NCBI GenBank assembly: GCA_965232485.1
Contig: OZ246975.1
Location: forward strand, 2,027,246 to 2,091,245
Source of the DNA: Rhodothermales bacterium
Lineage (GTDB): Bacteria; Bacteroidota; Rhodothermia; Rhodothermales; VXPQ01
Reading direction: 5' to 3'
DNA length: 64,000 nt
The notes beneath the pieces are model-generated. The model made no database searches. It saw nothing but the letters and a program-made list of their open reading frames with translations, and was not told the origin of the DNA. This document shows positions 1,664 through 60,155 of the stretch, piece after piece. Both the position numbers and the translations under genes were made by a program. Position 1 is the stretch's first letter. Each line of letters begins with the position of its first letter.

Positions 1664-1802
1664 AATTCCCGAATGTCGGGTTACGGGCTCACGCGATGGA
1701 GTAAAGACCGAGACCTTGATCCCGTGACGCACTGCCTGGCAAGCAAACTATCTGACAGGATTCAACGTAGCGCCCACCCGTCCGGACTAGGGCGTGTTAA
1801 CA

Positions 1803-2560
1803 CTAAAGCAATGCGTCGACGATGAGCACGAAGACGACGAAGCCGAGGAATACAACGTCGAGTTTTTCGAAGCGCGAGAAGATGCGCCTAAACCCCTTCA
1901 GACGCCGGAACAAACGCTCGATTTCGTTGCGCCGCTTGTACATCTCGCGGTCGTACTCCCAAGGGGCAAGGCGGTTTCTCTTCGGCGGAACGACGGGTAC
2001 GAACCCGAGGTCAAGCGCCAACTGGCGCGTACTGTCGTCTTCGTACGCACGATCCATCACCAACGCAGGACTGTTCGATGGCCTCTCCATGCCGCTCAAG
2101 AGCTTGCGGCCTTCGGGCGCGTCGTGCGCCTGGCCGGGAGAGAGCGAGAACGAGAGGGCCGTTCGAGCATCCGCGGCAACCATATGAATCTTGGCGCTCC
2201 AGCCGCCACGAGACTTGCCGATGGCTTGCGGACCGTTTTTTTTTCCGCGCCCGTACCGTCCGGATGGACCTTGACGCTGGTGCTATCCAGCCCCACCGCC
2301 TCGATCTTGATGCGCACGATTTGCTGCAGTTGCAGGTGCTCGAACACGCGGTCCAGAACGCCGTTTTTCGACCAGCGGTTCATTCGCGTGTAGATAGTGT
2401 GCCAATTGCCAAAGCGTTCGGGCAGTCCGCGCCACTTGCAGCCGTGCTCGGCCACGTAAAGGATCGCGTTAAGCACCTGAATATTCGACAGGCTCACGTT
2501 TCCGCGCTGTTTCGGCAGCAGCGGCGCGATCCGTTCAAACTGGGCCTCCGTGAGTTTCAT
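1803..2560 (-). CDS. IS5-family DDE transposase, two overlapping frames joined by a -1 frameshift
   Basis: The upstream frame starts MKLTEAQFERIAPLLPKQRGN (ATG at 2560). The downstream frame contains KIHMVAADARTALSFSLSPGQAHDAPEGRKLL...YKRRNEIERLFRRLKGFRRIFSRFEKLD. Shifting -1 at the A9 run gives the continuous sequence ...GTGAEKKNGPQAIGKSRGGWSAKIHMV... Confidence 0.85.
2236..2244 (-). other. A9 slippery run (A_AAA_AAA), candidate programmed -1 ribosomal frameshift site of the transposase
   Basis: Nine consecutive T on the plus strand, located where the two transposase frames overlap. The zero frame reads GAA AAA AAA ACG. Confidence 0.6.
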
Positions 2561-3085
2561 GTTCTGATGTTCTGAATTTAGCCTTATATTTCCGCGTCCC
2601 GAAATAACGCAACGAAGGACATCATGTTTCCTGTTAGTGTTAACACGCTCTAAAAGCAATAAAGAAGGCTTTCGGCATGGGCGGGGATGAAGACAGGAGC
2701 ATTCGCCCCCTATAAAGCCCCCTACGCGCCCGTAGCCCGGCTTTGAGGCGAACGGCGAATTTGCCCGGCCAACGCCCGGAAACGCCGTCTGCGGGCGTTC
2801 TGGTGCGCTGGACGCGAACCCCTGAAACCATGAAAAGCGACGATCCCGGCCCGAACTGCATCCAGACGGGAACCGGATTCCGAATCAGAACGCCGAATCC
2901 ATTCCCCTGTCCCAGTGCGGCAAGCAGAAAGGCGGCGTTATGCTCTGGCCATCGAGGAGCAAGAAGGGTTTTTGCTCCGTGCGCTGGTTTTGTTACCCTT
3001 GCCGGACGGAATGCCTCATCGAGGAGTACGACGGGATTCCCGAACCCCACAGGAACGCCGCCCGGAAACGCCTTTGCGCAGGGGC

Positions 3086-4778: not shown

Positions 4779-5144
4779 TTGGACGCATTGTGGGCGTACC
4801 GGCTTGACCTTTCCGGCATAGGGACGCGCCGGGCGCAGAAAACGGCGCGGGCTATCTTGCTTGAACTTGTCGGGATGATCAAATGGAACCCGGACGCGGA
4901 CGACTACGGCCAGGCATGGCCAACCGTCGCAAAGATTGCGGCGCGGATAGACCGTAAACCGCGGGGCGTACAGTACATCATGCGGCGGCTTGAAGCGTCC
5001 GGCTACGTCGTTCGGAGCATCCGCAAGCGTTCCGACGGGGGCAACGCATCGAACCTTTACGCGCTGAATCCGGCGGCGCGGGGTGTGGATAACCCCGCAG
5101 TTTGTGCAGCGGGGTTGGAAAGACGGTGTTGCTTGAAACCCTGA
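4779..5144 (+). CDS. winged-helix DNA-binding protein, plasmid/phage replication-initiator-like; its 3' end runs into the repeat junction
   Basis: 121-aa ORF. The segment WPTVAKIAARIDRKPRGVQYIMRRLEASGYVVRSIRKRSDGGNASNLYALN looks like an HTH/wHTH of small Rep-type proteins. The last ~12 codons lie beyond the junction at 5109. Confidence 0.4.
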   Translation: MDALWAYRLDLSGIGTRRAQKTARAILLELVGMIKWNPDADDYGQAWPTVAKIAARIDRKPRGVQYIMRRLEASGYVVRSIRKRSDGGNASNLYALNPAARGVDNPAVCAAGLERRCCLKP

Positions 5145-6163
5145 AGCCCCTTGCACTTGATCGCGGATGGCTGTGGGTCGGGGCCGATCTAAGTGAAACC
5201 GCCAGCCTGCGGGAAGAGCATATGGCCACTCGGCTATGCACCGATCTGTCGCTTGTAACTTCCTCTGTGGCGGCGTCTGTCAGGCAAGTTCAGCCTTTGG
5301 GGTTCGGCGCGAGCACAAAAACGGTGGAGAACCGGCTTGACTACCGGACCCTGACGGATATCTATCGGCAAACGCCAGGGCTTGCGCTCGACAAAATCAA
5401 AACGGTGCTCGAAACAGCGTGGGCAGCGCTGGCCCACACGGAAATACGCGGAATCGTTTTTGCCTACGACGAAGCCCAAAACCTTGCCGACCATGCCGAC
5501 AAGGAGCAATTTCCCCTCTCGCTGCTTCTGGATACATTCCAGTCTATACAAAGGAAAGAACTTCCTCTGATGCTCGTATTGACGGGATTGCCAACGCTCT
5601 TTCCGTCGCTCGTGGAGTCGCGGACTTTTTCCGAACGCATGTTTCGCGTGGTTTTTCTCGACCGTCTTTCGGAAGACGATAGCCGCGAAGCGATTCAGCG
5701 GCCTGTCGCCAATACGAAAGGAACCGTGCAACTGAGTGATAACTCCGTAGACATGATCGTGAAAATGTCCGGCGGTTATCCATACTTCATCCAGTTTATT
5801 TGCAAGGAAGTGTATGATGCGTTTATCCAGCGTATAGACAGGGGCGAAGACGCCTCCGTGCCTACCTCAGAGATCATGCAGAAGCTGGATACGGATTTCT
5901 TTGCCGGGAGATGGAGTCGGGTAACGGACCGGCAGCGGGAACTGATGCTCGTCATCGCGCAACTGGATAGTAGCGACAGCGAATTCACTGTACAGGAGGT
6001 GGTGAAAAAATCCAATGCCGTACTTGACAAGCCATTCAGCAGCAGTCACGTAAATCAGATGCTATCGACGCTGAGCGCCCGTGGCATGGTTTTTAAGAAC
6101 AGGCATGGTCGATACTCCTTCGCGATACCGCTTTTGGCGAGCTATATCCGGCGCCAAATATAA
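5102..6163 (+). pseudogene. 5'-truncated second copy of the AAA ATPase gene
   Basis: Homology to copy 1 begins inside the Walker A codons (copy 1 residue ~52). It has no equivalent N-terminus, RBS or promoter. The C-terminus differs (..RRQI* versus ..RRQMDGTGE*). Confidence 0.7.
5109..6159 (+). repeat. 1051-bp direct repeat, copy 2
   Basis: See copy 1; offset 4515 bp, near-identical. Confidence 0.9.
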
Positions 6164-26049: not shown

Positions 26050-27930
26050 TTACTTGCGCCGCTCGGTCGTGCGGGGACCGCCGGGTCGCCGCGCCGATTT
26101 GGCCTTGCCTGTCCGGGCATGAAGCGGGCGCGGCTTTTTGCCGCGGGCAGATTGTTTTTTGCGCTGGCTTTTCGCCGCAGGCTGCCCGTTTTCTTCCTCT
26201 TTCGCCGCTGCAATATTCCGATTGATGATCTTCTGCTGCACGGCGGTTACCACATTATACACAAGGTAGTACAAGCTCAGCCCGGACGCGAAGCGATTGA
26301 AAATGGCGAAGATCATCACCGGCATCAGATAGGTGAGCATCTTCATTTGGGGGTTGGAGGTGGGCGCGGACTGAATACGCATCTGAACCACCATGGAAAG
26401 GCCCATGAGCAGCGTGAAGCCCGCCACGAAATCGCCGTAGAACGGAATGGTGAACGGCAGATTCAGGATGACGTCCGGCGCGGAAAGATCACTGGCCCAC
26501 AAAAATCCCTGTTGCCGGATTTCGATGGACTGCGGAAGGAAAAGCCACAGCGCAATAATAATGGGGTATTGCAGCAACATGGGGAGACAGCTTCCCACCG
26601 GATTGACGCCCGTCTCCTTGTACATCTTCATCATTTCCTGCTGCTGCTTTTGGGGATTGTCCCCGTACTTCTCCTTGATGGACTCCATCTTCGGTTGCAG
26701 TTCGCGCATCCGGGCCATGCTCTTGTAGGAGCTTTTCGTCAGCGGGTACAGGACCAGCTTGATGAGAATGGCGAAGACAATGATGACGTAGCCGTATCCG
26801 GGAATGAACTTCGCCAGAAACGTGAACGCAGGAATAAAAACCAGTCTGGCGAGGGGCCGCGTAATCCACTCGAAAAAATCCCAACCGTAATCCACCATGT
26901 CGTACAGGCCCAGATCGTAGTCGGCGATGCGGTAAAACTCCATCGGTCCGACGTACAGCCTGAATTCGTCCGGCCCGTCCTCCGGACGCGGCATAAACAG
27001 ACGCATATCGTAGCGCTGCCGAAAGTCCGCGCTACCCGGTTCGCCCGTTTGCTCTCCGGCAAGCTCGGCGCCCCGCGTACTTGAGGAGGGGATCATAACC
27101 GTAGTGAAATACCTCGTTTTGACGGCGGTCCAATCCACAAGCCCGCTCAGGGGCGCCTCCTGAAAATCTTCTTTCCGAAGCGCAATATATTCCACTTCGC
27201 CTCCGCTGTGCGCATAGACTCCCGACGCCTTGACCTCCTCGTTCGGGTCGTTTTCGGTGAACGGAATGCCGCCTTCCCATATCAATTCGTACCCCTCTCG
27301 CGTGGAAAAGGCCGCTGCATTTTCCTGCGCTACCCGCAAGCCGATTTCGTATTCGCCCGGATAGAACGTATACGTCTGGCGCAACACGCCCCCCTGAATG
27401 CCCGTTTCGAAATGCAACTGGGCGGAATCGCCGGACACGCGCAGGGTATCCCCCTCGTACGACGTATCGAAATACAAATCGCGCGAATTGAGCACATGGG
27501 AGCGAGGCGTCGTAAAAGCGATGGACAAAGCGCCCGAACCAGTGGTATCCACCATCTGTACGGGCGTTTCCTGATCGAATTTCTGGTATTCTTTCAGGAT
27601 AAAAGAGATCAGCGTGGCCCCCCTCGTAGAGAAAACCGCGCTATACATATCGGTTTCGACCGTAATGAAACGGGCTTCGCCCGCCAACGCCGCCTCCAGC
27701 GTCGTATCCTGCCGGGCCGCCTCCGCAACGGACAGCTCCTCGTCCGATTGCGGGTCGTCGAACGCCAGCGCGTCGCTTCCCGCGGCAGCTTGTTCGGCGG
27801 ATAGTGAATCTTCGACAAGCGCCGCCGGATTGTCGTCGGGCGCAACCGGCTGCGGCGGCGCCAACAACCAGAGCCAGAGAAACATGATAATCGCTACCAG
27901 AACGGTCGCGATGACGACATTGCGGTCCAA
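26050..27930 (-). CDS. yidC: membrane protein insertase YidC
   Basis: YidC/Oxa1 core (…PLTKSSYKSMARMRELQPKM…CLPMLLQYPIIIALW…). The likely start is the TTG at 27930, giving MDRNVVIATVL with AGGGGA upstream. The track ORF extends to 27996. Confidence 0.9.
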   Translation of the reverse strand: MDRNVVIATVLVAIIMFLWLWLLAPPQPVAPDDNPAALVEDSLSAEQAAAGSDALAFDDPQSDEELSVAEAARQDTTLEAALAGEARFITVETDMYSAVFSTRGATLISFILKEYQKFDQETPVQMVDTTGSGALSIAFTTPRSHVLNSRDLYFDTSYEGDTLRVSGDSAQLHFETGIQGGVLRQTYTFYPGEYEIGLRVAQENAAAFSTREGYELIWEGGIPFTENDPNEEVKASGVYAHSGGEVEYIALRKEDFQEAPLSGLVDWTAVKTRYFTTVMIPSSSTRGAELAGEQTGEPGSADFRQRYDMRLFMPRPEDGPDEFRLYVGPMEFYRIADYDLGLYDMVDYGWDFFEWITRPLARLVFIPAFTFLAKFIPGYGYVIIVFAILIKLVLYPLTKSSYKSMARMRELQPKMESIKEKYGDNPQKQQQEMMKMYKETGVNPVGSCLPMLLQYPIIIALWLFLPQSIEIRQQGFLWASDLSAPDVILNLPFTIPFYGDFVAGFTLLMGLSMVVQMRIQSAPTSNPQMKMLTYLMPVMIFAIFNRFASGLSLYYLVYNVVTAVQQKIINRNIAAAKEEENGQPAAKSQRKKQSARGKKPRPLHARTGKAKSARRPGGPRTTERRK

Positions 27931-28029
27931 ATCAGGTTCCCCTTGCTCGTATGAAAGAATGGACGGGTGTTGTTTGCGCTTGCCGCAAAGGCGCAAAAAC
28001 GCCGAAACGCCGCCGCGCTAAACGGAAAG

Positions 28030-28488
28030 TCATGCGGGACGTTCCGAACGCATGGAAGATTCGTCGAGACGGCGGCAAAGTTCTTGCAGGGCTTTCGGCA
28101 AATCGGCATGCACCCGACAACCCGGTCGAATGTCGTCCGACCGTCCGCTGCGATGCAGAATCATCATGGTCAATGCGCTGGACGTACCGGAAAAACGGTC
28201 CAGTACGCCCTGCTGATGAAGGCGCCAGGCTTCGCGCAGCAACCGCTTGATGCGATTCCGCGTTGAGGCTTTTGGATGACGGCCGGGCGCAAATCCGATT
28301 TGAACGGGCGCATCGGCTTCGAGATGCGTCCGGGGTACTACCCGGTACACGATCTGAACGCACCCCCTCCTCACCGCAGCCACATCTTCGCGGCGACGGT
28401 CGAACAAGGGACGAATAAGACGCTTTCGCTTGAGACGAAACGAGCAGGGCAATTTTTGAAACGGGCGCGGGCGGCCATCCTTCGACAC
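28030..28488 (-). CDS. rnpA: ribonuclease P protein component
   Basis: Basic 152-aa protein immediately downstream of rpmH. The segment RLKRKRLIRPLF...TRNRIKRLLREAW is typical of RnpA. Confidence 0.8.
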   Translation of the reverse strand: MSKDGRPRPFQKLPCSFRLKRKRLIRPLFDRRREDVAAVRRGCVQIVYRVVPRTHLEADAPVQIGFAPGRHPKASTRNRIKRLLREAWRLHQQGVLDRFSGTSSALTMMILHRSGRSDDIRPGCRVHADLPKALQELCRRLDESSMRSERPA

Positions 28489-28502
28489 GATGCAGCCTCA
28501 GA

Positions 28503-28658
28503 CTATTTGCCTGAACGCGTGTCGCTTACAGTAAGGACGCGACGGCCTTTCTCGCGGCGGCGCTTGAGCACCTTGCGGCCGTTTTTCGAACGCATGCGAG
28601 CGCGGAAACCGTGCTTGTTGGCCCGTTTGCGGCGACTTGGCTGATACGTACGCTTCAT
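28503..28658 (-). CDS. rpmH: 50S ribosomal protein L34
   Basis: [39 protein letters not shown]. Start at the internal ATG, 28658. Confidence 0.9.
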
Positions 28659-28762
28659 GATAACAGGGCGCCTGAAGACGCTTCTTGACTTTTTGTAACG
28701 GGTACAGAATTCCTTTGTACGCACATGCCCGCGGGTATGTTTTCCCGCAATGCAAAGGTTAA

Positions 28763-28860
28763 GGATTCCTCATTATGCGGGGCCTGCCGCATTGCTTCGT
28801 CATTCCTTGCCGGCGAACGCCTCGCAGTCTTTGAGCATCGTGGACTTAATCAGAGTATCC
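28763..28860 (+). repeat. ~100-bp conserved intergenic element, copy 1 (orientation A)
   Basis: Its reverse complement shares the blocks GGATACTCTGNTTAAGTC, GCCGGCAAGGAATGACGAAGCAATGC and CCCCGNATAATGAG with 41451-41547 and 62374-62472. Confidence 0.8.
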
Positions 28861-28865
28861 TTAAA

Positions 28866-28918
28866 GAATGCTCTGATCAAATCCGCAAAAATTCAGAAAG
28901 GGCATGCGGATTAAGGAC
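28866..28918 (+). repeat. partial inverted copy of the same element
   Basis: gaatgctctgatcaaatccgcaaaaattcagaaaggg aligns with ggatactctggttaagtccgcaaagattcagaggctgaaagg of copy 3. With the end of copy 1 it forms an imperfect inverted repeat centred near 28863. Confidence 0.55.
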
Positions 28919-28965
28919 CTGTGCGGAACCCTCTCCGCCGGACGGAGTAGGGGTACAGCTGTATA

Positions 28966-29037
28966 GCGGGAGTAGCTCAGGGGTAGAGCATCAGCTTCCC
29001 AAGCTGAGGGTCGCGGGTTCGAATCCCGTTTCCCGCT
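28966..29037 (+). tRNA. tRNA-Gly (anticodon CCC)
   Basis: Manual cloverleaf: acceptor GCGGGAG/TTCCCGC, anticodon stem TCAGC/GCTGA, loop TTCCCAA, T-loop TTCGAAT. 72 nt. Confidence 0.85.
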
Positions 29038-29100
29038 CGGCAAGACGAGCAGACGAAATGGTTCGGCGAACGCAGCGATACGCGCTCCGCATACCCCGAT

Positions 29101-29175
29101 GGGCGGTTAGCTCAGCTGGTTTAGAGCGCCTGCCTTACAAGCAGGAGGTCACTGGTTCGAATCCGGTACCGCCCA
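29101..29175 (+). tRNA. tRNA-Val (anticodon TAC)
   Basis: Acceptor GGGCGGT/ACCGCCC, anticodon stem CCTGC/GCAGG, loop CTTACAA, T-loop TTCGAAT. 75 nt. Confidence 0.85.
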
Positions 29176-29296
29176 CAAAACAGGAGTATGTCCACCGCAT
29201 TCCATCGTTCCCGCGTTGACTTCCTGCGCCAAAAACAGTAGAATGCCGCTATAAGATACTCTGATCGAAACCACTACGCTCACGGAGGTAGAGTCA

Positions 29297-29632
29297 ATGC
29301 AGGTAATTACCGAAAACAAAAACGGGAGCCTTGTTATCGTAACCCAAGGCCGCGTCGATGGCAGCAACGCTCCTGAATTTCAGGAAGCCCTGAAGGAAGC
29401 GCTCAAGGGAGGCGAACGCACAGTCGTGCTTGATTTCGAGAACCTTGCGTACATCAGCAGCGCGGGTCTGCGGGTCATCCTGATGTTCGCCAAACAGATG
29501 CGAAGGGAAAATATCTCCTTTGCGGCATGCTCGCTCATCGCCGCAGTGAAGGATATCTTTGCAATCAGCGGCTTCGACAAGATTATTCCGATCCACGCAT
29601 CGCAAGAGGAAGCGCTGGCGGCGCTCGGCTAA
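29297..29632 (+). CDS. STAS-domain anti-sigma-factor antagonist (SpoIIAA/RsbV-like)
   Basis: 111 aa. The segment LDFENLAYISSAGLRVIL carries the conserved phosphorylatable Ser context. Confidence 0.85.
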   Translation: MQVITENKNGSLVIVTQGRVDGSNAPEFQEALKEALKGGERTVVLDFENLAYISSAGLRVILMFAKQMRRENISFAACSLIAAVKDIFAISGFDKIIPIHASQEEALAALG

Positions 29633-29707
29633 GGAACGACACAGGATTAAGGAACGACACAGGATTTCGCGGCCCGTCAAGGCAGGAAATGACAAAAACA
29701 TCTGGCC

Positions 29708-30871
29708 ATGGGTAAGACTCCGTACAAGATCCTCGTAGTGGACGACGAACCGGACTTGCAACCGCTCATGTTGCAGCGCATGCGGCGGAGCATTCGCTCC
29801 GGCAAATATACGTTCGTCTTCGCAGGCAACGGATTGGAGGCGCTGGAGCGACTGCGCGCAGAGCAGGACATAGATATGGTGGTGTCGGATATCAATATGC
29901 CCCAGATGGACGGTCTGACGCTGCTCGAACAGATTGCACAGATGGATCCGAATATTCGCTCCGTAATTATTTCCGCGTACGGAGACATGAAGAATATTCG
30001 CACAGCGATGAACCGGGGCGCTTTCGACTTCATTACCAAACCGGTCGATTTCGAAGACCTCCGGATCACCATCGACCGGACCCTCGAACACATGGCGCGG
30101 TGGCGCGAAGCGCTCGCTTCGCGGGACAAACTGGTTACGCTGCAAAACGAACTGGATATCGCCCGGAAGATGCAGCGGGCCATTCTCCCCACGGAATTTC
30201 CCCAAAAGCCCGCCTACCGCGTTTTCGGCGACATGGAGCCCGCCCGTAACGTGGGAGGAGATTTTTTCGATGTGATTCCCCTGAGTCAGGGCCGGATCGG
30301 CCTCGCGATAGCCGACGTATCGGACAAAGGCGTTCCGGCGGCCCTGTTTATGATGTCCACGCGCACCTTGCTGAAAGGCGCAGCCATTGGCCGCCCCCGG
30401 CCTGCGGACACGCTGAGCGAAGTAAACAATATGTTGTGCGAGAAGAACGACACCATGATGTTCGTGACGCTCCTGTACGGGATATACGACCCGAACACCA
30501 GAGATTTCACGTATGCGAATGCGGGGCACAACAGCCCGTTCCTCGTTCATCCCGACAAAAGCTGCGAGATGCTTCCGCTTACCGACGGCATCGCCATCGG
30601 GGTCATGCCCGATCTGGAGTACCAGCAAAAAACCGTCACGCTTGCCCCGGGCGACATTCTTAATTTTTATACGGACGGCGTCACGGAAGCTATGAACGAA
30701 AACCTGGAAGTGTTTGGCGAAGAACGTCTCTTGGATATTCTCAGGAACATGTTGTCCAAAAACCCCGAGGAAATCACGCGAGAAATCTTTGAGGGAGTCA
30801 GGGCCTTTGCCGGCGAAGCCCCCCAATCGGATGACATTACCTCCCTGACTCTCTGCCTGCCTGGAACCTGA
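29708..30871 (+). CDS. response regulator receiver fused to a PP2C/SpoIIE phosphatase (RsbU-like)
   Basis: Receiver: KILVVDDEPDL...VVSDINMPQMDG. PP2C: GGDFFDV...IADVSDKGVPAALFM...TDGVTEA. Confidence 0.9.
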   Translation: MGKTPYKILVVDDEPDLQPLMLQRMRRSIRSGKYTFVFAGNGLEALERLRAEQDIDMVVSDINMPQMDGLTLLEQIAQMDPNIRSVIISAYGDMKNIRTAMNRGAFDFITKPVDFEDLRITIDRTLEHMARWREALASRDKLVTLQNELDIARKMQRAILPTEFPQKPAYRVFGDMEPARNVGGDFFDVIPLSQGRIGLAIADVSDKGVPAALFMMSTRTLLKGAAIGRPRPADTLSEVNNMLCEKNDTMMFVTLLYGIYDPNTRDFTYANAGHNSPFLVHPDKSCEMLPLTDGIAIGVMPDLEYQQKTVTLAPGDILNFYTDGVTEAMNENLEVFGEERLLDILRNMLSKNPEEITREIFEGVRAFAGEAPQSDDITSLTLCLPGT

Positions 30872-34898: not shown

Positions 34899-36605
34899 TT
34901 ACCGCTTCCTGTCGCGACGCGGAGCGCGGTTTCGCTTTTTGTTAGCGCCTTGCTGCTTCTCCTGTTTTTCCTCCTTCCGTACCTCCTGTGCTCCGTGCTC
35001 GGCGATATCGCTCGCAAGCATGGCCAAAATTTCGGGCTCTTCCCGGGCCAATTCCTGAACAAGCGGAACAAACTGTCGAGCGCGCTCCCGCTCCATATTC
35101 GTTCGTTTGCGGAAGCGATTCTCCAGCGCAGCCGTAATATCTTCCGGCTGTTTCGCCTTCGACCGCGCCGCCTGCGCCCTGCTCCCGGCGATATCGCTCA
35201 CGAGCATGGCCAGCATTTCGGGCTCTTCCCGGGCCAACTCCTGAACAAGCGGAACAAACTGTCGAGCGCGCTCCCGATCCGCATCCGTGCGCTTGCGAAA
35301 GCGGTTCTCCAGCGAGACCGTAAGGCGCTCCGCAACACGCGCGCTAACATCCTCTGGCGTAGGAAGAGGACGTTTTTCCACAGGCACGCCATAGCGCATG
35401 GCCGAGCGAATAAGGTCTGTTTCGTCCTCCACGGTGGCCAGCGCCACGGCGACGCCCATTTTCCCGGCGCGGGCGGTCCGTCCAGACCGGTGAATCAGGT
35501 ATTCCGGATCTTGCGGCACATCGTACATGAACACATGGCTTAGGTCCGATATGTCGATCCCGCGGGCCGCGACGTCCGTGGCGACCAGAAAGCGCGTCTC
35601 CCCGGAATGGGTTCGGGCAAGCGCCGCCTCCCGGGCCTTCTGCGACAAATCCCCGGAGATGGCGTCGGCGCTATAGCCATAATTCTGTAGAAATGTCGTC
35701 AAATACTCGACATCCTTTTTCCTGTTGACGAATATGATCGCCGATTCGGGGTTTTCGATCTCGAAGAGGCGCGCCAGCACGCGATCCTTTTCCATGGGAT
35801 CGGTTACATAATACCGGTACTCCATCGTCTCAATGCTTTCCTTGCCCGCGCTTAACGAAATAAACCGGGGTTCCGTAAGAAAATCGCGGCTGAGCGACCG
35901 GACTCTGGGGGGAATCGTGGCGCTGAACATCAATGTGCACCGCTCGGCTGGCAAATACCGTCTCAATGCCTGCATGTCCGGATAAAAACCCATGGAGAGC
36001 ATCTCGTCCGCTTCATCGAAAATGACATAGTCGAGATTCCGAAAATCGGCGTTGCCCCGGCTGAGATGATCAAGAATCCGACCGGGCGTACCGATCACGA
36101 CCTGGGCGCCATCCTGCAACCCCCGAACCTGCGGTCGATAATCGACGCCGCCGTACACCAGCACGGAATCCAGCGCGCGGGTCCCGGCGGTAGCCTGTTT
36201 CATGTGCGCGAACACCTCGTTGATCTGCTTGGCCAGCTCGCGGGTAGGCGCCATAACGAGGGCTTGCGTAACGCGCCGCGACGAGTCCAGGCGTTCGAAA
36301 AGCGGCAACAGAAACGCCCCGGTCTTGCCGGACCCGGTGCGAGACTGCACGATCAGGTCGGCGCCTTCGAGAATATGGGGAATAACTTGCTCCTGAACGG
36401 GCATGAGCGAATCCCATCCGGCGGCGCCCAACGCTGCGCGCATGGTTTCGGACAAGTCGTCCAGCCTGACGCCCGGAAGGTCTTCGACAGCGCCCTCCTG
36501 AATATCCTGAATCTGTTGCTCGTTATGCTGCTCGCGCTGCGCGCGACGGGTCAAGTCAATGACCTTGGCATAGGAAAAAGATGATTTGCCTTCTTGCTCA
36601 TTCAT
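34899..36605 (-). CDS. DEAD-box ATP-dependent RNA helicase with a duplicated C-terminal module
   Basis: Motifs: SRTGSGKTGAF, PTRELA, VIFDEADEM, FSAT, HRSGRTARAG. The C-terminus carries two near-identical ENRFRKRT..ERERARQFVPLVQELAREEPE.LAML modules. Confidence 0.9.
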   Translation of the reverse strand: MNEQEGKSSFSYAKVIDLTRRAQREQHNEQQIQDIQEGAVEDLPGVRLDDLSETMRAALGAAGWDSLMPVQEQVIPHILEGADLIVQSRTGSGKTGAFLLPLFERLDSSRRVTQALVMAPTRELAKQINEVFAHMKQATAGTRALDSVLVYGGVDYRPQVRGLQDGAQVVIGTPGRILDHLSRGNADFRNLDYVIFDEADEMLSMGFYPDMQALRRYLPAERCTLMFSATIPPRVRSLSRDFLTEPRFISLSAGKESIETMEYRYYVTDPMEKDRVLARLFEIENPESAIIFVNRKKDVEYLTTFLQNYGYSADAISGDLSQKAREAALARTHSGETRFLVATDVAARGIDISDLSHVFMYDVPQDPEYLIHRSGRTARAGKMGVAVALATVEDETDLIRSAMRYGVPVEKRPLPTPEDVSARVAERLTVSLENRFRKRTDADRERARQFVPLVQELAREEPEMLAMLVSDIAGSRAQAARSKAKQPEDITAALENRFRKRTNMERERARQFVPLVQELAREEPEILAMLASDIAEHGAQEVRKEEKQEKQQGANKKRNRAPRRDRKR

Positions 36606-41339: not shown

Positions 41340-41450
41340 GACAGCACGTCAAATCTGTTCCATCCAACGAAGATATGCACGATCGCGTTCCGAGGCAAAA
41401 ACGACACAGCGTATTTGGGCCAATGCCGTCCGCCGCGCCTGCGAAATTAA

Positions 41451-41547
41451 GGACGCCGTGATTAAGTCTGCAAAGATTCAGAGGCTGAAAGGCGCGCGCC
41501 GGCAAGGAATGACGAAGCAGTGCGGCAGGCCCCGCATAATGAGGAAT
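41451..41547 (-). repeat. ~100-bp conserved intergenic element, copy 2 (orientation B on the plus strand)
   Basis: ggacgccgtgattaagtctgcaaagattcagaggctgaaaggcgcgcgccggcaaggaatgacgaagcagtgcggcaggccccgcataatgaggaat, in the yceD-dnaA divergent intergenic region. Confidence 0.8.
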
Positions 41548-41699
41548 GACACAGCCGGCGCGCGGTCTTAATACGTTTCGGTTTGTCTTTTTCTCCCGGA
41601 ATCGTTACCATCCTGCCATGCGCCCGCGGGAATTGAACGAAGGCGCTGTCGAGTACCGCAGAAAGATTCCTCCAGGGATCGCGCCAGAAACGACTTGCC

Positions 41700-41925
41700 T
41701 GTGAACAAATTGTGGGCAACCGGAGTCGCCCTGTCGAAAATAGACTGCTCGTGCCGACAACTCCGAAGCAGCATGTGTGAAAAAATCTCGCATTCTTTGT
41801 TCAAATCCTTTATTTACAGAAAGGTAAGAGCAAAAAAGCAATGTGTATAACCTGTGAGCGCATCAACGGTAACGCAAGCAGGGGATGGACATACGCGCGG
41901 AGGAAAAAATTTCCGTTGTGAATAA
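41700..41925 (+). promoter_or_regulatory. cluster of same-orientation DnaA-box-like 9-mers plus an AT-rich stretch (candidate dnaA operator / oriC part)
   Basis: TGTGAACAA 41700-41708, TGTGGGCAA 41711-41719, TGTGTGAAA 41774-41782, TGTGTATAA 41842-41850, TGTGAATAA 41917-41925, compared with the consensus TGTGGATAA. An AT-rich run lies at about 41780-41850. Confidence 0.45.
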
Positions 41926-43186
41926 TAGGTGCATATCGGACAGCCTTCCGGCCCGGCGGCGGCCTGTTCGAGAAAATAAACAGCGAGAACGATCCATGAA
42001 ACCGCCTTCTGGAAACGTATCCATGCCGCCTCCGGGCCCCCCGGAGCAACCGCCGCCCCCGACCGGAGCAGCGTCTCCGTCTGGCCCGGCGACGCCGAAT
42101 GCTGCGTTCGCGCGGGAAAGCGCTTTCGAACCCGCGAGCACGGTCTTTATTGCGTCCGGGCTTCCGCTAAACGCCTCGTACACCTTCGATCGATTCATTG
42201 AAGGCGATTGCAACCAGTTCGCGCGCAGCGCCGCGCTGGCCATCGCCCAGCAGCCCCGCCATACGGCCTTCAACCCGTTGCTGATCTATGGCGGCGTCGG
42301 CCTGGGCAAAACGCACCTTGTGCAGGCCATCGGCAACCATGTCCGGCAGCACAGCAACTACAATGTCCTGTATACGTCGAGCGATCACTTTACGTCGGAC
42401 TATATGCAATCGCTCCGGACAAACCGGAATAACGAGTTCGTCGCCTTCTACAGCGACATAGACCTCCTGATCATCGACGACATCCAGTTCTTCAGCGACC
42501 AGCCGAAAACGCAGGAAGGCCTCTTCCACACCTTCAACCTGCTGCATCAGGCCGGAAAACAGATCGTTTTCTCGACAGACCGGGCGCCGCAGGAAATTTC
42601 TGGCGTGGCGGACCGGTTGCTTTCGCGGTTTCAGGGAGGACTCGTGGCCGACCTGCAACAACCCGAGCTGGAAACCCGTATCGCTATTCTTAACCGCAAG
42701 GCCAACGATCAGGGCATCGACATCCCGTATGAATTCATCGAATTCGTGGCGCGGCGCATCACGAAGAATGTGCGGGAACTGGAAAGCGCCCTCATACGAC
42801 TACTGGCGCACGCCACGCTGCACCGGCGCGAAATAGATATGCCGCTCATCCGGGAGGCGCTCGGCGAGCTGCCCGACGACACGCATGCAAAACCGACCGT
42901 GGAAGATATTCGCCGCACCGCCTGTGCATACTTCGGCGTCGCCGAAGACCTGGTGCTGGGCCGGGAACGCAAGCGGGAAATCGTGCAGGCGCGCCATGTG
43001 GGAATGTACTTCAGCAAAAAAATGACCGGGCATTCCCTCGCCACGATAGGCCGGTATTTCGGCGGCAAGGACCATTCGACCGTGATTCATGCCTGCCGGT
43101 GCGTCGAGAACCTGATGGAAACAGACCCGAACTTCCGGGAAACGCTCAAACGAATCCACAGGGAAATCGAGGCCGGTTACCGATAA
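41885..43186 (+). CDS. dnaA: chromosomal replication initiator DnaA (domains III-IV clear; no recognisable domain I)
   Basis: YGGVGLGKTHL, LLIIDDIQF, a box VII-like region and a C-terminal DNA-binding HTH (KDHSTVIHA). The N-terminal ~95 aa are a short basic segment plus a Pro-rich linker. An in-frame TAA lies 15 nt upstream of 41885. An alternative start is at 41996. Confidence 0.85.
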   Translation: MDIRAEEKISVVNNRCISDSLPARRRPVRENKQRERSMKPPSGNVSMPPPGPPEQPPPPTGAASPSGPATPNAAFARESAFEPASTVFIASGLPLNASYTFDRFIEGDCNQFARSAALAIAQQPRHTAFNPLLIYGGVGLGKTHLVQAIGNHVRQHSNYNVLYTSSDHFTSDYMQSLRTNRNNEFVAFYSDIDLLIIDDIQFFSDQPKTQEGLFHTFNLLHQAGKQIVFSTDRAPQEISGVADRLLSRFQGGLVADLQQPELETRIAILNRKANDQGIDIPYEFIEFVARRITKNVRELESALIRLLAHATLHRREIDMPLIREALGELPDDTHAKPTVEDIRRTACAYFGVAEDLVLGRERKREIVQARHVGMYFSKKMTGHSLATIGRYFGGKDHSTVIHACRCVENLMETDPNFRETLKRIHREIEAGYR

Positions 43187-43317
43187 GGATACGCTGAGGA
43201 TACTCTTTCCCCGCGGTATTGTTATCTTGGGAAACATGGGCTTTTTTGTTTCCCTAAGTTGTAGCGTCATCCGGCGCCGCACATGTGCCACCTGAGCGTA
43301 TCGATCATAATAACGCC

Positions 43318-44436
43318 ATGAAATTCACCGCTTCCAGCGCCGCTCTCCTCAAGGCGCTGACCACCGCCGGGGGAGCCGTCCCCACAAAAAGCACCCTTCC
43401 CATTCTGGAGTGCATCCTTTTCGAACAGGTTGACGAGACGCGCCTTCGTCTGAGCGCAACGGACCTGGAAGTCTCCATCGTACAGGAGGTTGACGTGCAA
43501 TTCGAAGACGAACAGGCCCGTCGCATCGCCGTGCCGGCGCGGCGCCTTCTGGACACGTTGCGCGCCTTGCCCGAAGTGCCGATCTCTTTCGAGGCAAACG
43601 ATGAATTTCACATTGAGCTCAAAACCGAGGCAGGCGAATACAAAATGTCCGGACACGACGGAGGAGACTACCCGTCCCTCCCCGACCTCGACCCGGAACA
43701 TCGCATAGATACGTCCGGCGATCTGATCCGCCGCGCGATCGACAAGACCAGTTTCGCGGTCAGCAAGGACGCGCTGCGACCCGCCATGATGGGCGTGTAC
43801 TTTCAGATTGGCCCGGCGCCGGGACGCGCCGTGGCGACGGACGGACACCGCCTTGTCCGCATGCAAATGGACGCCTTGCTCTCGGAAGAAGAAGTGAATT
43901 TCATCATTCCGGAAAAAGCGCTCTCGCTGGCCAACAAGATTCTCTCTGGAGAAAACTGCGCCATCCTGGTGGATGCAGGCTATGCGGCCTTCGTCGCAGG
44001 CGATACGCGCATCCTGGTGCGGCTTATCGCCGAGGCATACCCCAACTATGAAGCCGTTATCCCCCAGGACAACGACAAGCGGATTCTCGTGGAGCGGAAC
44101 GCGCTGCTCGCCGCCGTAAAACGCGTCAGCCTGTATTCGTCCAACCTGACGCCTCAAATCCGCCTGATGCTCCATCCGGATCACATCGATATCTCTGCGC
44201 AGGATATCGAGCGGTCAAGCGAAGCACACGAGACCGTCCCCTGTGAATACGACGGCGAGCCGATGTCCATCGGATTCAACGCCACCTATCTGAACGAAGT
44301 CCTCGGACACATCGACGACCATGAGATCGTTATCGCATTCAGTTCTCCGAATCGCGCCGGCGTGGTTACGCCGCATAATCAGCGAGACGGGGAACAGGCG
44401 CTGATGCTCATCATGCCGGTCATGCTGAACCATTGA
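43318..44436 (+). CDS. dnaN: DNA polymerase III beta sliding clamp
   Basis: MKFTASSAALLKAL...; 372 aa, immediately after dnaA. Start at the internal ATG, 43318. Confidence 0.9.
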   Translation: MKFTASSAALLKALTTAGGAVPTKSTLPILECILFEQVDETRLRLSATDLEVSIVQEVDVQFEDEQARRIAVPARRLLDTLRALPEVPISFEANDEFHIELKTEAGEYKMSGHDGGDYPSLPDLDPEHRIDTSGDLIRRAIDKTSFAVSKDALRPAMMGVYFQIGPAPGRAVATDGHRLVRMQMDALLSEEEVNFIIPEKALSLANKILSGENCAILVDAGYAAFVAGDTRILVRLIAEAYPNYEAVIPQDNDKRILVERNALLAAVKRVSLYSSNLTPQIRLMLHPDHIDISAQDIERSSEAHETVPCEYDGEPMSIGFNATYLNEVLGHIDDHEIVIAFSSPNRAGVVTPHNQRDGEQALMLIMPVMLNH

Positions 44437-51697: not shown

Positions 51698-52963
51698 ATG
51701 ACGCCCAGCCAGCCATACGCCGAAATGCGCGGGCGGCATATTCTGCTCGGCGTAACCGGGGGCATTGCGGCGTACAAATCCGTCGAACTGGTGCGGCTCC
51801 TCAAGAAAGCAGGCGCCGACGTACAAGTCCTGATGACGCCGGACGCCGCGCGCTTCGTCACGCCGTTGACGCTGGGGACCGTTTCGGGGCGTCCTGTCCT
51901 TACAGACCTGTTTTCCGAGGCGGAAGACGGAGCCTGGACTCGACACATTACGCTTGGGCATTGGGCGGACCTTCTGGTCGTTGCCCCGGCGACGGCGCAA
52001 ACGCTGGCCAAAATGGCGGGGGGGTTCTGTGACAATATGCTCACCGCCACAGTGCTTGCCGCCCGGCGTCCGATTCTCGTATGCCCGGCCATGGACGAGG
52101 ATATGCTGGTTCATCCGGCCACGCAGCGCAACCTGGACGCGCTTCGGTCCTATGGCTATTTCGTGGCGCCGACAGCCTACGGCCCGCTTGCAAGCGGATT
52201 GACGGGACAGGGCCGCTTGCCGGAACCGGAAGAAATCGTGCAGCACATCCGGGAGGCGCTTGCAACAAACCCGGACGCTCGCCCGGCGCATTCCCACGCG
52301 GAAAACGGCCTTCTGCAAAACAAGCATGTGCTCGTAACGGCGGGACCTACCCGGGAACATGTAGACCCGGTCCGCTTCCTCAGCAATCCCTCGTCGGGCA
52401 AAATGGGCTTTGCGCTCGCGGAAGCGGCCGCCCGGCGAGGCGCCAACGTCACGCTGGTTTGCGGTCCGTCGCGCCTCGACACGCCCGCTCATGTGCAGCG
52501 AATCGACGTGGAAAGCGCCGAAGAAATGCACGATGCGGTCATGGCGCATGGCACGGCCGATATTGTGATTATGGCGGCAGCGGTCGCAGATTACGCGCCG
52601 AAAGAACGCGCCGCGCAAAAAATAAAAAAGAGAAACGGCGAAATGGCGTTGCACTTGCGACGCACGGCGGATATTCTCTATGCATTGCAACAACAACGGG
52701 CCGAGGGGCAACTCCTCGTGGGATTTGCCCTGGAAACCAACGATGGCCTGGAAAACGCGCGCAAAAAGCTCCGCGACAAGAACATCGACTGGATCGTACT
52801 CAACATGATTGCCGAGGGATCGGGGTTCGAGGCGGAAACGAATCGAATCACATTGCTGAACCGAAATGGCCACGAGGAAGCGCTGCCCATGCTGAGCAAG
52901 CGGGAAACCGCCGAAATCATTCTGAATCGCATTACGTCCACGCAGGACCGGACGGCGGCGTAA
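51698..52963 (+). CDS. coaBC: bifunctional phosphopantothenoylcysteine decarboxylase / phosphopantothenate-cysteine ligase
   Basis: [13 protein letters not shown] flavoprotein motif and the C-terminal CoaB half ([26 protein letters not shown]). The track ORF starts at TTG 51647; ATG 51698 was chosen. Confidence 0.9.
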
Positions 52964-53029
52964 CGAGGCGGCGAGACCTGCTCCAGAACCGACCCCGACT
53001 CTACGACGGCGTATGACTTCTTCCCGACA

Positions 53030-53899
53030 ATGTCCCTGCTTCGCGAACTGAAAACCATTCTTGAGCACGAACAGCGGCTAAGCGGGCCGCTCGCGCCACT
53101 CCCCCATGCCGTCGGGCAAGCAGCGCAGGACGCGCCGCCGAGCGAGCATGTCCCTCTGGAAACGACCCGGCAATCTGCTGCTCCGGCCCCCGTCCACAGA
53201 GGCGCGCCGCCCGAAAACACGAACGACGGTTTGTTCGGAGATGGGAGCGGGGCGAGACAGCGCGGCGGAGACAACCCGTCGCCCTATGCACGCATTCATG
53301 GGCTGATTCCGACGCAATCCCCGCTGCGCGAGATGAATACGCTGGACGAAGTCGAAGCCTTCGTGCGCGACACGGAGCTGATCGCCCTCGACAAAACCCG
53401 CGCCAATCCGGTGTTCGGCACAGGAAGCCCTGAGGCAGACCTGATGGTGATTGGGGAAGCTCCCGGAGCAGACGAAGACGCTCAGGGAGAGCCTTTCGTG
53501 GGAAGGGCAGGCCAATTGCTGAACAAGATTCTGAAGGCTATCGATTTCGAACGCAAAGAGGTCTACATCGCAAACATTCTGAAAAGCCGCCCGCCGAACA
53601 ACCGGAACCCGCTTGCCGAGGAAGTCCAGGCGCATGCCCCGATTCTCTATAAACAAATGGCGCTTATTCGACCTAAATTGCTCCTTTGCCTCGGCAAGGT
53701 CGCAGCATCCACGTTGCTGGACCGGCAGGATTCGCTGAAAGCCATGCGGCAAATTTTTCATGATTTTCATGGCCTTCCTCTGCTTGTGACCTATCATCCG
53801 GCGGCGCTGCTGCGCAATCCCGGATGGAAACGAGCCGCCTGGGAAGATGTGCAGATGCTTCGCAAACGCTACGACCAGTTGACGGGAAGCGCAGCCTGA
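53030..53899 (+). CDS. family-4 uracil-DNA glycosylase with a ~110-aa low-complexity N-terminal extension
   Basis: LMVIGEAPGADEDAQGEPFVGRAGQLL (GEAPG motif) and ...ANILKSRPPNNRNP... Confidence 0.85.
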   Translation: MSLLRELKTILEHEQRLSGPLAPLPHAVGQAAQDAPPSEHVPLETTRQSAAPAPVHRGAPPENTNDGLFGDGSGARQRGGDNPSPYARIHGLIPTQSPLREMNTLDEVEAFVRDTELIALDKTRANPVFGTGSPEADLMVIGEAPGADEDAQGEPFVGRAGQLLNKILKAIDFERKEVYIANILKSRPPNNRNPLAEEVQAHAPILYKQMALIRPKLLLCLGKVAASTLLDRQDSLKAMRQIFHDFHGLPLLVTYHPAALLRNPGWKRAAWEDVQMLRKRYDQLTGSAA

Positions 53900-53915
53900 C
53901 CGTCGTTTCTGCGCC

Positions 53916-55388
53916 TTGCACGCACCCGATATGCCTGAACAGGAACTATATCCTCCGCCCATGCCGGACGCCCCCCCGCAGGAAATGCCGGACCGACATG
54001 CCGGCGGGCGCGTGCCGCCGCAAGCTGTCGACGTCGAGCAGGCCGTACTGGGAGCGATTCTTCTGGAGCAAGACGCGCTGTCGAAAAGCCTTGAGATTCT
54101 TTCCGAAAACAGTTTTTACGACGGGCGACATCGGAAAATATTCGCCGCGTTCTCGGAACTCTTCCGGAAAGGCGTTCCCGTCGATTTAATCACCTTGACG
54201 GACGAACTGCGGCGGCGCAAGGAACTCGACAAGGTGGGCGGCGCAAATTATCTGAACGAAATCTCGGCGCATATGGGCGCCGCCGCGAATGTCGAATACC
54301 ATGCCCGCATCATCGCCGAGAAGCACCTGCTTCGGAAACTGATCGAAACGACGACGCAACTCACCCGGGACGCATACGAGCCTGGGGCGGACACGTTCGA
54401 ATTGCTCGACAAGGCCGAAACAGACATTTTCAAAATTTCGAATGAGGAGATACGGCGGCCCGCGGAGAAGGTCTCGGACGTAATAAAAACCGCGATAGAA
54501 CACCTTGAGGCCATTGATGGGCGAGAAGGGGGGATAACTGGCGTGCCCAGCGGCTTTTCGAGCCTGGACCAATTAACCAGCGGCTGGCAACGATCCGACC
54601 TGATCATCATCGCTGCCCGTCCGTCCATGGGCAAAACCGCGTTTGCCTTGGCCTGCGCCCGCAATGCGGCCTTGCACAAGAATTATCCGGCGGGCGTGGC
54701 CATTTTCTCGCTTGAGATGGGCGCGGAGCAGCTGGCCCTGCGCTTGTTGACGTCGGAAGCGCGGGTCAATTCCCAGAACGCTCGCACGGGGCAAATGAAG
54801 TACGAAGATTGGTCGAAAATATCTCATGCCGCCGGAATACTGGCCCAAGCCCCCATTTTCATCGACGATACGCCGGGGCTGTCTGCTCTGGAGCTCCGCG
54901 CCAAGTGCCGCCGCCTGAAATCCGAACACGACATAGGGCTGGTGATCGTAGACTACCTGCAACTGATGCATGTGGGCGATACGAAGCAACGCTACGCGAA
55001 CCGGGAGCAGGAAATTTCGCAGATCAGCCGGTCCATGAAGGCGATGGCCAAGGAGATGGACGTGCCCGTTATCGCGCTGTCCCAGCTGAGCCGGGCCGTG
55101 GAAGCCCGGAGCGACAAGCGGCCTCAACTTTCGGATTTGCGCGAAAGCGGAGCCATCGAACAGGACGCGGATGTGGTGTGTTTTATTTATCGTCCCGAGG
55201 AATACGACATTACGACGGACAGAAATGAGAACTCCACGGAGGGCATGGCCGAAATCATTGTCGGGAAACAGCGCAACGGACCAACCGGTTCGAGGGACCT
55301 GGCCTTCGTCAAGAAATATGCGCGCTTCGCAAACCTGGCGACGCATTATCAGGACCCCCCGGAAGGAAATGGGGCCAATGTCTTCTAA
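53916..55388 (+). CDS. dnaB: replicative DNA helicase
   Basis: PPQAVDVEQAVLGAIL, Walker A ARPSMGKTAFAL, IVDYLQLM, LSQLSRAVE. Confidence 0.95.
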   Translation: MHAPDMPEQELYPPPMPDAPPQEMPDRHAGGRVPPQAVDVEQAVLGAILLEQDALSKSLEILSENSFYDGRHRKIFAAFSELFRKGVPVDLITLTDELRRRKELDKVGGANYLNEISAHMGAAANVEYHARIIAEKHLLRKLIETTTQLTRDAYEPGADTFELLDKAETDIFKISNEEIRRPAEKVSDVIKTAIEHLEAIDGREGGITGVPSGFSSLDQLTSGWQRSDLIIIAARPSMGKTAFALACARNAALHKNYPAGVAIFSLEMGAEQLALRLLTSEARVNSQNARTGQMKYEDWSKISHAAGILAQAPIFIDDTPGLSALELRAKCRRLKSEHDIGLVIVDYLQLMHVGDTKQRYANREQEISQISRSMKAMAKEMDVPVIALSQLSRAVEARSDKRPQLSDLRESGAIEQDADVVCFIYRPEEYDITTDRNENSTEGMAEIIVGKQRNGPTGSRDLAFVKKYARFANLATHYQDPPEGNGANVF

Positions 55389-55487
55389 CGCCGCCTGCGC
55401 ACAAGGACGGGAAGCCGGCGCCTGAGGAATACGCTTGTTTCATGTGGGCGAAGAGGCGCTGCGAAACGGTTTCGATCAGCGCATCCC

Positions 55488-56531
55488 TCAGAAGCCCAGC
55501 CCCCGTGCATGGAGGCGAATGCGGGCAAGGAACATGTCTGACGTAAGATACAGCGTCGACCCATCGTCGCCGAAGGCGCAGTTGGCGATCCGCTCTCCTG
55601 TGGAAATGACGCCAAGGTGTTCCCCTTCGGGCGTCAACGCCAGTACGCCGCCCGGTCCCGTAGCAAACAAATTCCCCTCCGTATCGACCGCCATGCCGTC
55701 AAAGGCGCCCACCGCCCCGTCGGCGACCAGGGCGCTGCCGTCGAAAAAGACGCGGCTGTTGGCGAGCGTTCCGTCGTCCTGCACATCGTAGGCGCGAATA
55801 ACCGGATCGTCCCCCCCGGAATTTGCGACATACAGGGTTTTTTCATCTGGCGAAAACGCGATCCCGTTCGGAAAAGGCAGTTCGTCCGTAAGCAAGGACG
55901 CCGCGCCGCTCGCATCGACGCGGTATACGCCATTAAAAGGAATCTCCTTGTCCGGGCTGTCGTTGAGACCCGCCAGTCCGTAGGGCGGATCGGTGAAATA
56001 CAAATCCCCGCTGGAATGAAAAACGAGATCGTTGGGGCTATTGAGGCGCTTGTCTTCGTAAGCGTCGACAATGGTCTCGCGCGTGAAATTCGCGGCGTCG
56101 AGGCGGGCGACTTGCCGGTTGCCATGATCGCACATCACCAGTTGGCCTGCCGCGTCCAGCGCGAGGCCGTTCGTGCCCAACTCGGCTCCCGGCGGATCGC
56201 TTCCCGCATAGCCCGCAGGCCGAAGCCAGGGCGACAGGCCGCTTTTTTCGTCCCACCGGTAGATGGTGTTCGCCGGAATGTCGGAGAAAAGAAGATAGCC
56301 CCCTTCGTCGGGAACCCAGACCGGGCCTTCCGACCACTCGAACCCCTCGGCCAGTTTTTCAATGACGGCGTCCTCGGGGACCAGCGCGTCCATCCGATCG
56401 TCCAGGCGGATCACCGTCCCGACAGATTCGGGGGCGGGACGGACGTAGATTTCCTCCTCTTCATGGGAAACGCAGCCCGCCATGGCGGCAAGCGCAAAAA
56501 AAAGGACAGGAATGCGAAGCGAGGCGAACAT
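55488..56531 (-). CDS. SMP-30/gluconolactonase/LRE-family beta-propeller lipoprotein
   Basis: Signal/lipobox MFASLRIPVLFFALAAMAGC, then EGPVW...NDLVFHSSGDLYFTDP...PNGIAFSPDEKTLYVA repeats. The track ORF extends over tRNA-Cys, so it was trimmed to ATG 56531. Confidence 0.85.
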   Translation of the reverse strand: MFASLRIPVLFFALAAMAGCVSHEEEEIYVRPAPESVGTVIRLDDRMDALVPEDAVIEKLAEGFEWSEGPVWVPDEGGYLLFSDIPANTIYRWDEKSGLSPWLRPAGYAGSDPPGAELGTNGLALDAAGQLVMCDHGNRQVARLDAANFTRETIVDAYEDKRLNSPNDLVFHSSGDLYFTDPPYGLAGLNDSPDKEIPFNGVYRVDASGAASLLTDELPFPNGIAFSPDEKTLYVANSGGDDPVIRAYDVQDDGTLANSRVFFDGSALVADGAVGAFDGMAVDTEGNLFATGPGGVLALTPEGEHLGVISTGERIANCAFGDDGSTLYLTSDMFLARIRLHARGLGF

Positions 56532-56585
56532 GGCTTTCTCTGGAAAACAAGCGGACGACAGGCGCGGGATTGCCTGTGCTCTGTG

Positions 56586-60143: not shown

Positions 60144-60155
60144 CCGGTTAGCCGG

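Follow-up and report, generated by a model that had tools for sequence, protein, structure and literature searches.

Conserved intergenic elements in a Rhodothermales genome are very probably relics of one MITE family

Three conserved elements of about 100 bp in a 64,000-nt stretch of Rhodothermales DNA (the window), together with at least four further fragments in the same stretch, are very probably decayed copies of a single Rhodothermales MITE family. The element found in the window corresponds to the left 40% of an element of 253-257 nt, whose anatomy and distribution are those of a MITE. What appears to be a shared leader of translation operons is, on this reading, transposon debris, which annotators should mask and not model as a regulator. 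Three relics in one window are an ordinary finding. A feature of possible wider import is the strand-specific covarying fold of the family, with loops conserved above the level of the terminal repeats.

The three copies and their conserved blocks had been noticed in an earlier note on this DNA and proved to be real: the 26-nt block GCCGGCAAGGAATGACGAAGCAATGC, located by a search of the window at 28789-28814 (-), 41498-41523 (+) and 62421-62446 (+) with zero or one mismatch, is present three times, compared to no occurrence in 100 dinucleotide-preserving shuffles. Two of the three blocks described there as shared are indeed present in all copies, namely GCCGGCAAGGAATGACGAAGCAATGC and CCCCGNATAATGAG, the latter as an exact match in three of three, but the third block, GGATACTCTGNTTAAGTC, was detected at up to three mismatches in copies 1 and 3 only, its counterpart in copy 2 being the degenerate GGACGCCGTGATTAAGTC. 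The units enclosed by flanking direct repeats comprise positions 28763-28860, 41451-41567 and 62374-62476, which leaves the first of the earlier intervals unchanged and replaces the ends 41547 and 62472 of the other two. Relative to copies 2 and 3, copy 1 is located on the minus strand.

Copy 1 (28763-28860, -) is a MITE relic which extends from the left terminal repeat through the apical hairpin. It matches profile positions 1-96 (at 28860-28765; nhmmer E = 5e-27), followed by the terminal CC. Its target-site duplication (TSD) is TTAA at 28759-28762, supported by the sequence and a flank test, and TTAA at 28861-28864, the latter being common to a left-end fragment that lies head-to-head with copy 1. 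To the left are located rpmH (28503-28658, -), rnpA and yidC, and to the right tRNA-Gly(ccc) (28966-29038, +) and tRNA-Val(tac) (29101-29176, +). Copy 2 (41451-41567, +), likewise a MITE relic, covers profile positions 1-112 (nhmmer 3-112 at 41453-41563; E = 1.9e-31) and shows a degenerate left terminal repeat and, as judged from sequence and fold, 11 bp of helix P2. It is bracketed by TTAA at 41447-41450 and at 41568-41571, both supported by sequence and flank test, and lies between yceD (start 41339, -), rpmF and plsX (-) on the left and dnaA (ORF from 41885, +) and dnaN (+) on the right. The third relic, copy 3 (62374-62476, +), matches profile positions 1-92 (at 62374-62470; nhmmer E = 2e-23) and continues with CCTCC(T). 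The relic takes up the whole spacer from the nusB stop (62477) to the ychF start (62363). Both genes are encoded on the minus strand, antisense to the relic. The duplication of copy 3 reads TTAG at 62370-62373, 6 nt from the ychF ATG, and TTAG at 62477-62480 on the nusB side, where the minus-strand sequence CTAA includes the nusB stop codon TAA.

Read in the direction CTCATTAT... to ...AGAGTATCC, the copies face tRNA-Gly (28966, +), yceD (41339, -) and ychF (62363, -). The common orientation towards these three genes, as reported earlier, is thus literally true; read the other way, copies 1 and 2 face rpmH and dnaA just as well.

The full unit extends from GGATACTCTGATTAAGTCC... to ...GGAyTTGATCAGAGTATCC and carries terminal inverted repeats of about 21 bp. 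Homology in relatives reaches far past the limits of the window copies. A 19-mer from the conserved central block was found in at least 106 8-kb blocks of public genomes; among the matches listed, 105 blocks are titled Rhodothermales and one (locus L057) “uncultured bacterium”, and they come from about 10 metagenome-assembled genomes. Both ends are present with up to three mismatches in 84 of 105 oriented copies, mostly at a spacing of 253-257 nt. Alignment A2 was built from 76 copies of 245-262 nt in which both terminal repeats are present, and its profile gave 191 nhmmer hits over the loci and the window, 88 of them full length. In A2, the terminal repeats pair over columns 1-21 and 264-285 and show compensatory changes between subfamilies. 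Judged by its sequence, the element seems to be without coding capacity, as 253-257 nt are too short for a transposase, and one ORF-like frame that was inspected by eye is broken by indels. Its length also stays below the limit of about 400 bp for bacterial MITEs.

Direct repeats of 4 bp flank the intact copies, being identical in 29 of 76 and differing by one base in another 31. Where the left flank is non-palindromic, the repeat is direct in 16 copies and inverted in one. Controls gave no such signal, with 0/76 for shifted positions and 0/76 for 5-bp repeats. The flank logo (n=76) reads T46 T41 A48 A63 on one side and T58 T48 A48 A56 on the other, so that the target consensus is TTAA with a preceding C; CTAA, TTAG and CTAG are also present. 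The GC content of the flanks is 50% compared to 59% for the loci overall. Full copies are intergenic, with a median distance of 58-81 nt to the neighbouring ORFs, and the strands of these ORFs relative to the element occur in all combinations (++ 24, -- 19, -+ 16, +- 13). The earlier note had stated that random scatter with respect to genes and orientation, combined with target-site duplications, would speak for a plain MITE, and exactly this pattern was found. Mobility is deduced from this anatomy, because no clean empty site was recovered at orthologous positions.

In all three window copies, the 4-mer of the left flank recurs 2-6 nt beyond the end of homology. Since the copies are still bracketed by a matching 4-mer, we read them as probable insertions that later lost about 60% of the interior while 2-4 nt of the right terminus were kept. 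After insertion, internal sequence would have been lost, and the left end, the 5′ arm of P2, the apical hairpin and both TSDs would have remained. The junction GAGGAAT/CC/TTAA of copy 1 corresponds to a deletion of GAC...CAGAGTAT and may have arisen by slippage or microhomology deletion involving the internal GAGGAAT and the terminal GAGTAT/CC. No single clean microhomology deletion matches the junctions of copies 2 and 3. A similar form, in which the left part is followed by ATCC and then by the duplication, is present in L056. Copy 3 would have been inserted at a minus-strand CTAA holding the nusB stop codon TAA; in the reconstructed sequence before insertion, the distance from the nusB stop to the ychF ATG is 6 nt.

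Deletion forms are also found in relatives and comprise copies without the interior of P3 (172-210 nt), copies without P2 and minis of about 85 nt; the shortest are repeat-to-repeat remnants of 37-39 nt. A retro-type 5′-truncation was considered for the short forms and rejected, because left-only and right-only fragments both exist and the breakpoints fit internal deletions. In another locus (L100 2-1055, OX638293), partial MITE pieces covering profile positions 17-201, 201-254, 102-254 and 113-253 are arranged in tandem, which suggests local rearrangement or nested insertions.

The nhmmer profile detected at least four more fragments of the family in the window, at 61095-61217, 55446-55486, 29255-29282 and 28866-28897. 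The last of these belongs to a solo left end (GAATGCTCTGATCAAATCCGCAAAAATTCAGA...; 28866-28912, +), a second, almost fully deleted copy, in which profile positions 3-31 were matched at 28868-28897 (E = 0.0097) and which was also caught by a terminal-repeat scan with 4 mismatches. It is the partial inverted copy that had been proposed earlier to adjoin copy 1, and it does lie head-to-head with it; element ends abut likewise in L016, L041, L070 and L081. A right-end fragment of about 30 nt (29254-29285, -; reverse complement TGAGCGTAGTGGTTTCGATCAGAGTATC; profile positions 226-253, E = 0.0089; inverted repeat I12) is located just upstream of an ORF starting at 29297, which is putatively STAS-like as read from its translation. 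Another right-end fragment of about 40 nt (55446-55486, +; profile positions 209-254, nhmmer E = 0.014) occupies the spacer between the ORFs 53916-55388 (+) and 55488-56642 (-). The largest fragment, the right half of a copy (61095-61217, +; profile positions 132-254, E = 2.7e-25), comprises helix P3 and the right terminal repeat and lies downstream of the ychF stop codon. A tandem repeat of 18 nt, perfect and present in 2.1 copies (TAAGGAACGACACAGGAT), was observed at 29630-29666, where the putative STAS-like ORF (29297-29632) ends and before a putative response-regulator-like ORF (29708-30871), both assignments being taken from translations.

Comparison with relatives gives a view of site occupancy. 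The window region 52761-60563 is collinear with OZ220746 (L102) at 77-79% identity, and one spacer is occupied in both, by a 187-nt copy in OZ220746 and by the 41-nt fragment (55446-55486) in the window; different element ends face the shared flank. Upstream of dnaA, a MITE is present in L046, L059 and L028, in opposite orientation to the window copy; their distance from the conserved DnaA region is about 900-1000 nt, compared to 621 nt for the window copy. Because the window copy differs in both position and orientation, we infer that this large AT-rich spacer received insertions repeatedly and that the copies in it are not a conserved regulatory element. As a marker of intergenic turnover the family is useful; its targets include stop codons and the dnaA-upstream spacer. 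Counting L046, L059 and L028, the spacer at window positions 41340-41884 bears a MITE in at least four genomes in differing orientations, and it may contain the replication origin. The clusters rpmH-rnpA-yidC and dnaA-dnaN are neighbours in many bacteria; in the window, they (26050-28658 and 41885-44436, respectively) are about 13 kb apart and divergently transcribed.

The fold of the intact copies has three helices: P1 arises from pairing of the two terminal repeats, P2 is long and capped by an apical hairpin, and P3 is the third. In A2, 97.7% of the cells are paired, versus 32-41% in slid controls, and changes on both sides occur at 21 of 56 pairs (203 cells), values reached in 0 of 500 shuffles, with covariation counts inflated by the fact that the A2 copies share ancestry and are not independent samples. 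The two strands differ in stability, alifold giving -64.8 kcal/mol for the top strand (GGATACTCTG→) versus -29.0 kcal/mol for the bottom strand; the top strand is the more stable one in 63 of 76 copies (p = 3e-10). Wobbles were counted in helices defined geometrically and not by a folding program, those in five or more copies being termed frequent. Frequent G:U is present at 16 sites versus five for frequent A:C, only two of which lie in solid helices, and rare wobbles are symmetric (27 sites versus 25). As the frequent wobbles are one-sided and the rare ones symmetric, the constraint is taken to act on the lineages that propagate and not on each resident copy. Conservation reaches 99.4% in the unpaired loop AATGAGGAATGAC, a segment outside the search pattern, and 97.6% in the junction CCCGAAG, compared to 88-92% for the terminal repeats and 79% for the interior of P3. 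With its covariation, its one-strand G:U and its loop conservation, the interior is under more constraint than a transposase substrate needs.

The window relics have lost this fold. Taken as single strands, copies 1-3 gain no stability over shuffles, with z values of +0.27, -2.11 and -0.87 on the top strand and of -1.08, -1.03 and -1.27 on the bottom strand. Covariation, which the earlier note had named as a touchstone, is strong in the intact copies against shuffled and slid controls, but the copies from which the note started no longer carry the structure. With insertions oriented at random, it is unlikely that every copy acts as an RNA at the level of the host. Otherwise, propagation might pass through a single-stranded or RNA stage, the fold might be a docking module for protein, or RNA might be produced from master copies.

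The most substantial of the rival explanations adds a function to the MITE and is compatible with it, namely that the element, as a mobile unit, carries a folded RNA with a function or a single-stranded DNA signal. The family would then spread or persist because the GGATACTCTG→ strand has to adopt a three-helix structure with fixed loop sequences, possibly as a transposition intermediate, as a platform for transposase or host factors, or as a small RNA. The pairing with its two-sided changes, the asymmetry between the strands, the excess of frequent G:U and the conservation of loop and junction above that of the P3 interior all argue for it. Nevertheless we regard it as rather unlikely, since insertion in both orientations to genes means that read-through could not transcribe most copies on the structured strand, Rfam gave no match, shared ancestry inflates the covariation and the fold is lost in the window copies. 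The narrower claim that one strand must fold, with a three-helix junction and invariant loops (GGAATGAC twice, CCCGAAGGG) kept in at least 10 Rhodothermales species, is likewise doubtful. If true, it would imply a single-stranded or RNA stage of transposition despite terminal repeats and TSD, or a MITE-borne small-RNA or protein-docking module, and a fold that reflects mechanism would bear on the recognition or regulation of terminal-repeat elements. In a search for known RNAs, Rfam 15 at gathering score gave only tRNAs in the window, and the full-length copies of four loci (E up to 1) and the region of the finding (E up to 5) gave only chance-level matches to miRNA and snoRNA families. One further RNA match was observed next to a MITE: at L017 510-585 (+; OX638293), a good group II intron domain V, GAGCUGGAUGCGGGAAAUCAGCACGUCCGGUUC (RF00029), reached 39.7 bits, just under the gathering score of 40. 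It is located 19 nt outside the MITE right end and is preceded by GAAGGAATGACA, which resembles the loop motif of the MITE; being unique to that locus, it was treated as a coincidence.

Functions for the window copies themselves fare less well. The earlier note had considered a structured RNA leader, and copies near rpmH, rpmF and ychF as well as the conserved fold of the family could suggest a cis-acting, riboswitch-like or ribosomal-protein leader of translation operons. We give this reading hardly any credence: the fold lies on the strand opposite to that read into tRNA-Gly, yceD and ychF, the window copies are devoid of more than half of the structure and are no more stable than shuffles (z from +0.27 to -2.1), full-length copies have neighbours in all four strand combinations, and the Rfam searches gave no match to the element. 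In practice, target duplications and the family-wide distribution refute it. A shared regulator site, also raised earlier, would require that the relics were co-opted as promoters or regulator sites of rpmH/tRNA-Gly, yceD-rpmF-plsX/dnaA and ychF, for which the same end faces a gene start 10-112 nt away in all three relics and a CATAAT/TATAAT hexamer is found inside them. The units are instead truncated transposon-like pieces with TSDs, their orientation is random family-wide and the dnaA-upstream copies of relatives are inverted. Furthermore, copy 3 sits inside a former 6-nt spacer, so that ychF was probably co-transcribed with nusB before, and a promoter scan, whose model is without Bacteroidota-type promoters, gave no sigma-70-like promoter in 28600-29000. 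Co-option of this kind is therefore quite improbable. Of the MITE or REP family proposed earlier, the first half stands, on the strength of terminal repeats, 4-bp TSD and dispersal. A REP/REPIN, which a RAYT (a Y1 transposase like that of IS200/IS605) would move and which consists of palindromic units of 20-40 nt with an associated RAYT gene, or a palindrome derived from IS200/IS605 would account for an intergenic multi-copy hairpin-former constrained as a single strand on one strand, but the size of about 255 nt, the 21-bp terminal inverted repeats and the 4-bp duplication render this practically negligible, as to our knowledge REP and IS200/IS605 derivatives have neither terminal inverted repeats nor a target duplication. 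Three cases underlie the apparent association with translation genes, which the preference of the element for TTAA in AT-rich spacers beside gene ends explains. As decayed MITE copies, the window elements would be passive relics in the spacers rpmH/tRNA-Gly, yceD/dnaA and nusB/ychF, which offered TTAA-type sites.

The MITE would be moved by a DDE transposase supplied in trans and making 4-bp staggered cuts. Our best guess for its parent, from sequence features, is the IS5 group, because of the GG ends, the duplication of 4 bp at a TTAA/YTAR-like target and a repeat match of 12/19. The target of IS5 is YTAR. The termini of the element are GG...CC, and the end of E. coli IS5A, GGAAGGTGCGAACAAGTCC, agrees with GGATACTCTGATTAAGTCC at 12 of 19 positions, GA..AAGTCC included, where about 5 of 19 are expected; IS5A was the sole reference element compared, and the match could be due to chance. 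Unlike IS5, the MITE is without coding sequence, and no IS5-group transposase with MITE ends was found in the loci or the window.

An autonomous element with these terminal repeats was found neither in the window nor in about 0.8 Mb of sampled Rhodothermales DNA. Over all loci, pairs of terminal repeats 0.6-3.5 kb apart turned out to belong to adjacent MITEs or, in L084, to be solo ends enclosing ordinary genes. In the search for a partner, comparing all loci with one another by megablast yielded orthologous synteny only, matches to the left end alone were only mini deletion forms, and tblastn with E. coli InsH1 against the loci gave no credible match, only spurious ones. An IS110-type RNA-guided element was also considered and rejected, as target conservation does not extend past cTTAA and the terminal repeats are clear.

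In L084 (461-2365, OZ220686), two solo MITE right ends of about 37 nt each are inverted with their termini outward and bracket 1.9 kb with two ordinary-looking, non-transposase ORFs of 271 aa and 368 aa, the former resembling, by eye, a HAD-type hydrolase. The layout resembles a composite transposon without clear target duplication. The sole insertion sequence in the window (1788-2652, about 865 nt) has 19-nt terminal inverted repeats, TAGGGCGTGTTAACACTAA and TTAGTGTTAACACGCTCTA, which are unrelated to those of the MITE, and in its ORF (2096-2659, -) DUF4096, a putative IS4/5-family transposase domain, was detected (E = 1.4e-24). This insertion sequence and several small ORFs lie in a segment of about 3.4 kb between two near-identical AAA_16 ATPase genes (440-1663 and 5102-6163), which share 300 identical nucleotides (594-893 and 5109-5408); the arrangement looks like a duplication or a gene-disrupting insertion.

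Among known elements, bcr1 of the Bacillus cereus group is about 155 bp long, has 5-bp direct repeats, is transcribed and forms a cruciform with two independent stem-loops kept by compensatory changes (PMC3184786). Both families are non-coding, multi-copy and intergenic with short flanking direct repeats and show compensatory changes, the two stem-loops of the Rhodothermales MITE being placed on a terminal-repeat stem. The fold-keeping changes described here thus extend a known theme (bcr1, PMC3184786). In contrast to bcr1, the Rhodothermales MITE has about 255 nt, a 4-bp TTAA duplication and a host of another phylum, and the two have no common sequence. Whereas bcr1 is transcribed, the MITE is known here from DNA sequence alone, and the one-strand G:U bias and the ultra-conserved loop are features measured in the latter. 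Correia/nemis elements of Neisseria and ERIC of enterobacteria are similar in being short with terminal inverted repeats, landing beside genes, being co-transcribed and forming long hairpins, but they duplicate TA and have 100-160 bp, and they are documented to undergo RNase III/E processing and to exert promoter effects (general knowledge and PMC3184786).

While this kind of element is already known, the family itself appears to be undescribed so far. No relevant paper emerged when the literature was searched for MITEs of Rhodothermus or Rhodothermales, the plasmid collection contained no match to the whole element or the terminal repeat, and in viral contigs the 19-mer was not matched, while the terminal repeat was matched once, by chance, within a coding sequence. 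The family, not found in Rfam 15 or in these literature and sequence searches, occurs in an uncultured Rhodothermales lineage. Beside the MITE fragments, the window harbors another repeat at 34962-35323, where two adjacent 176-nt direct repeats with 83% identity and 186 nt from start to start lie inside a 568-aa ORF (34899-36605, -) and probably represent an internal protein repeat.
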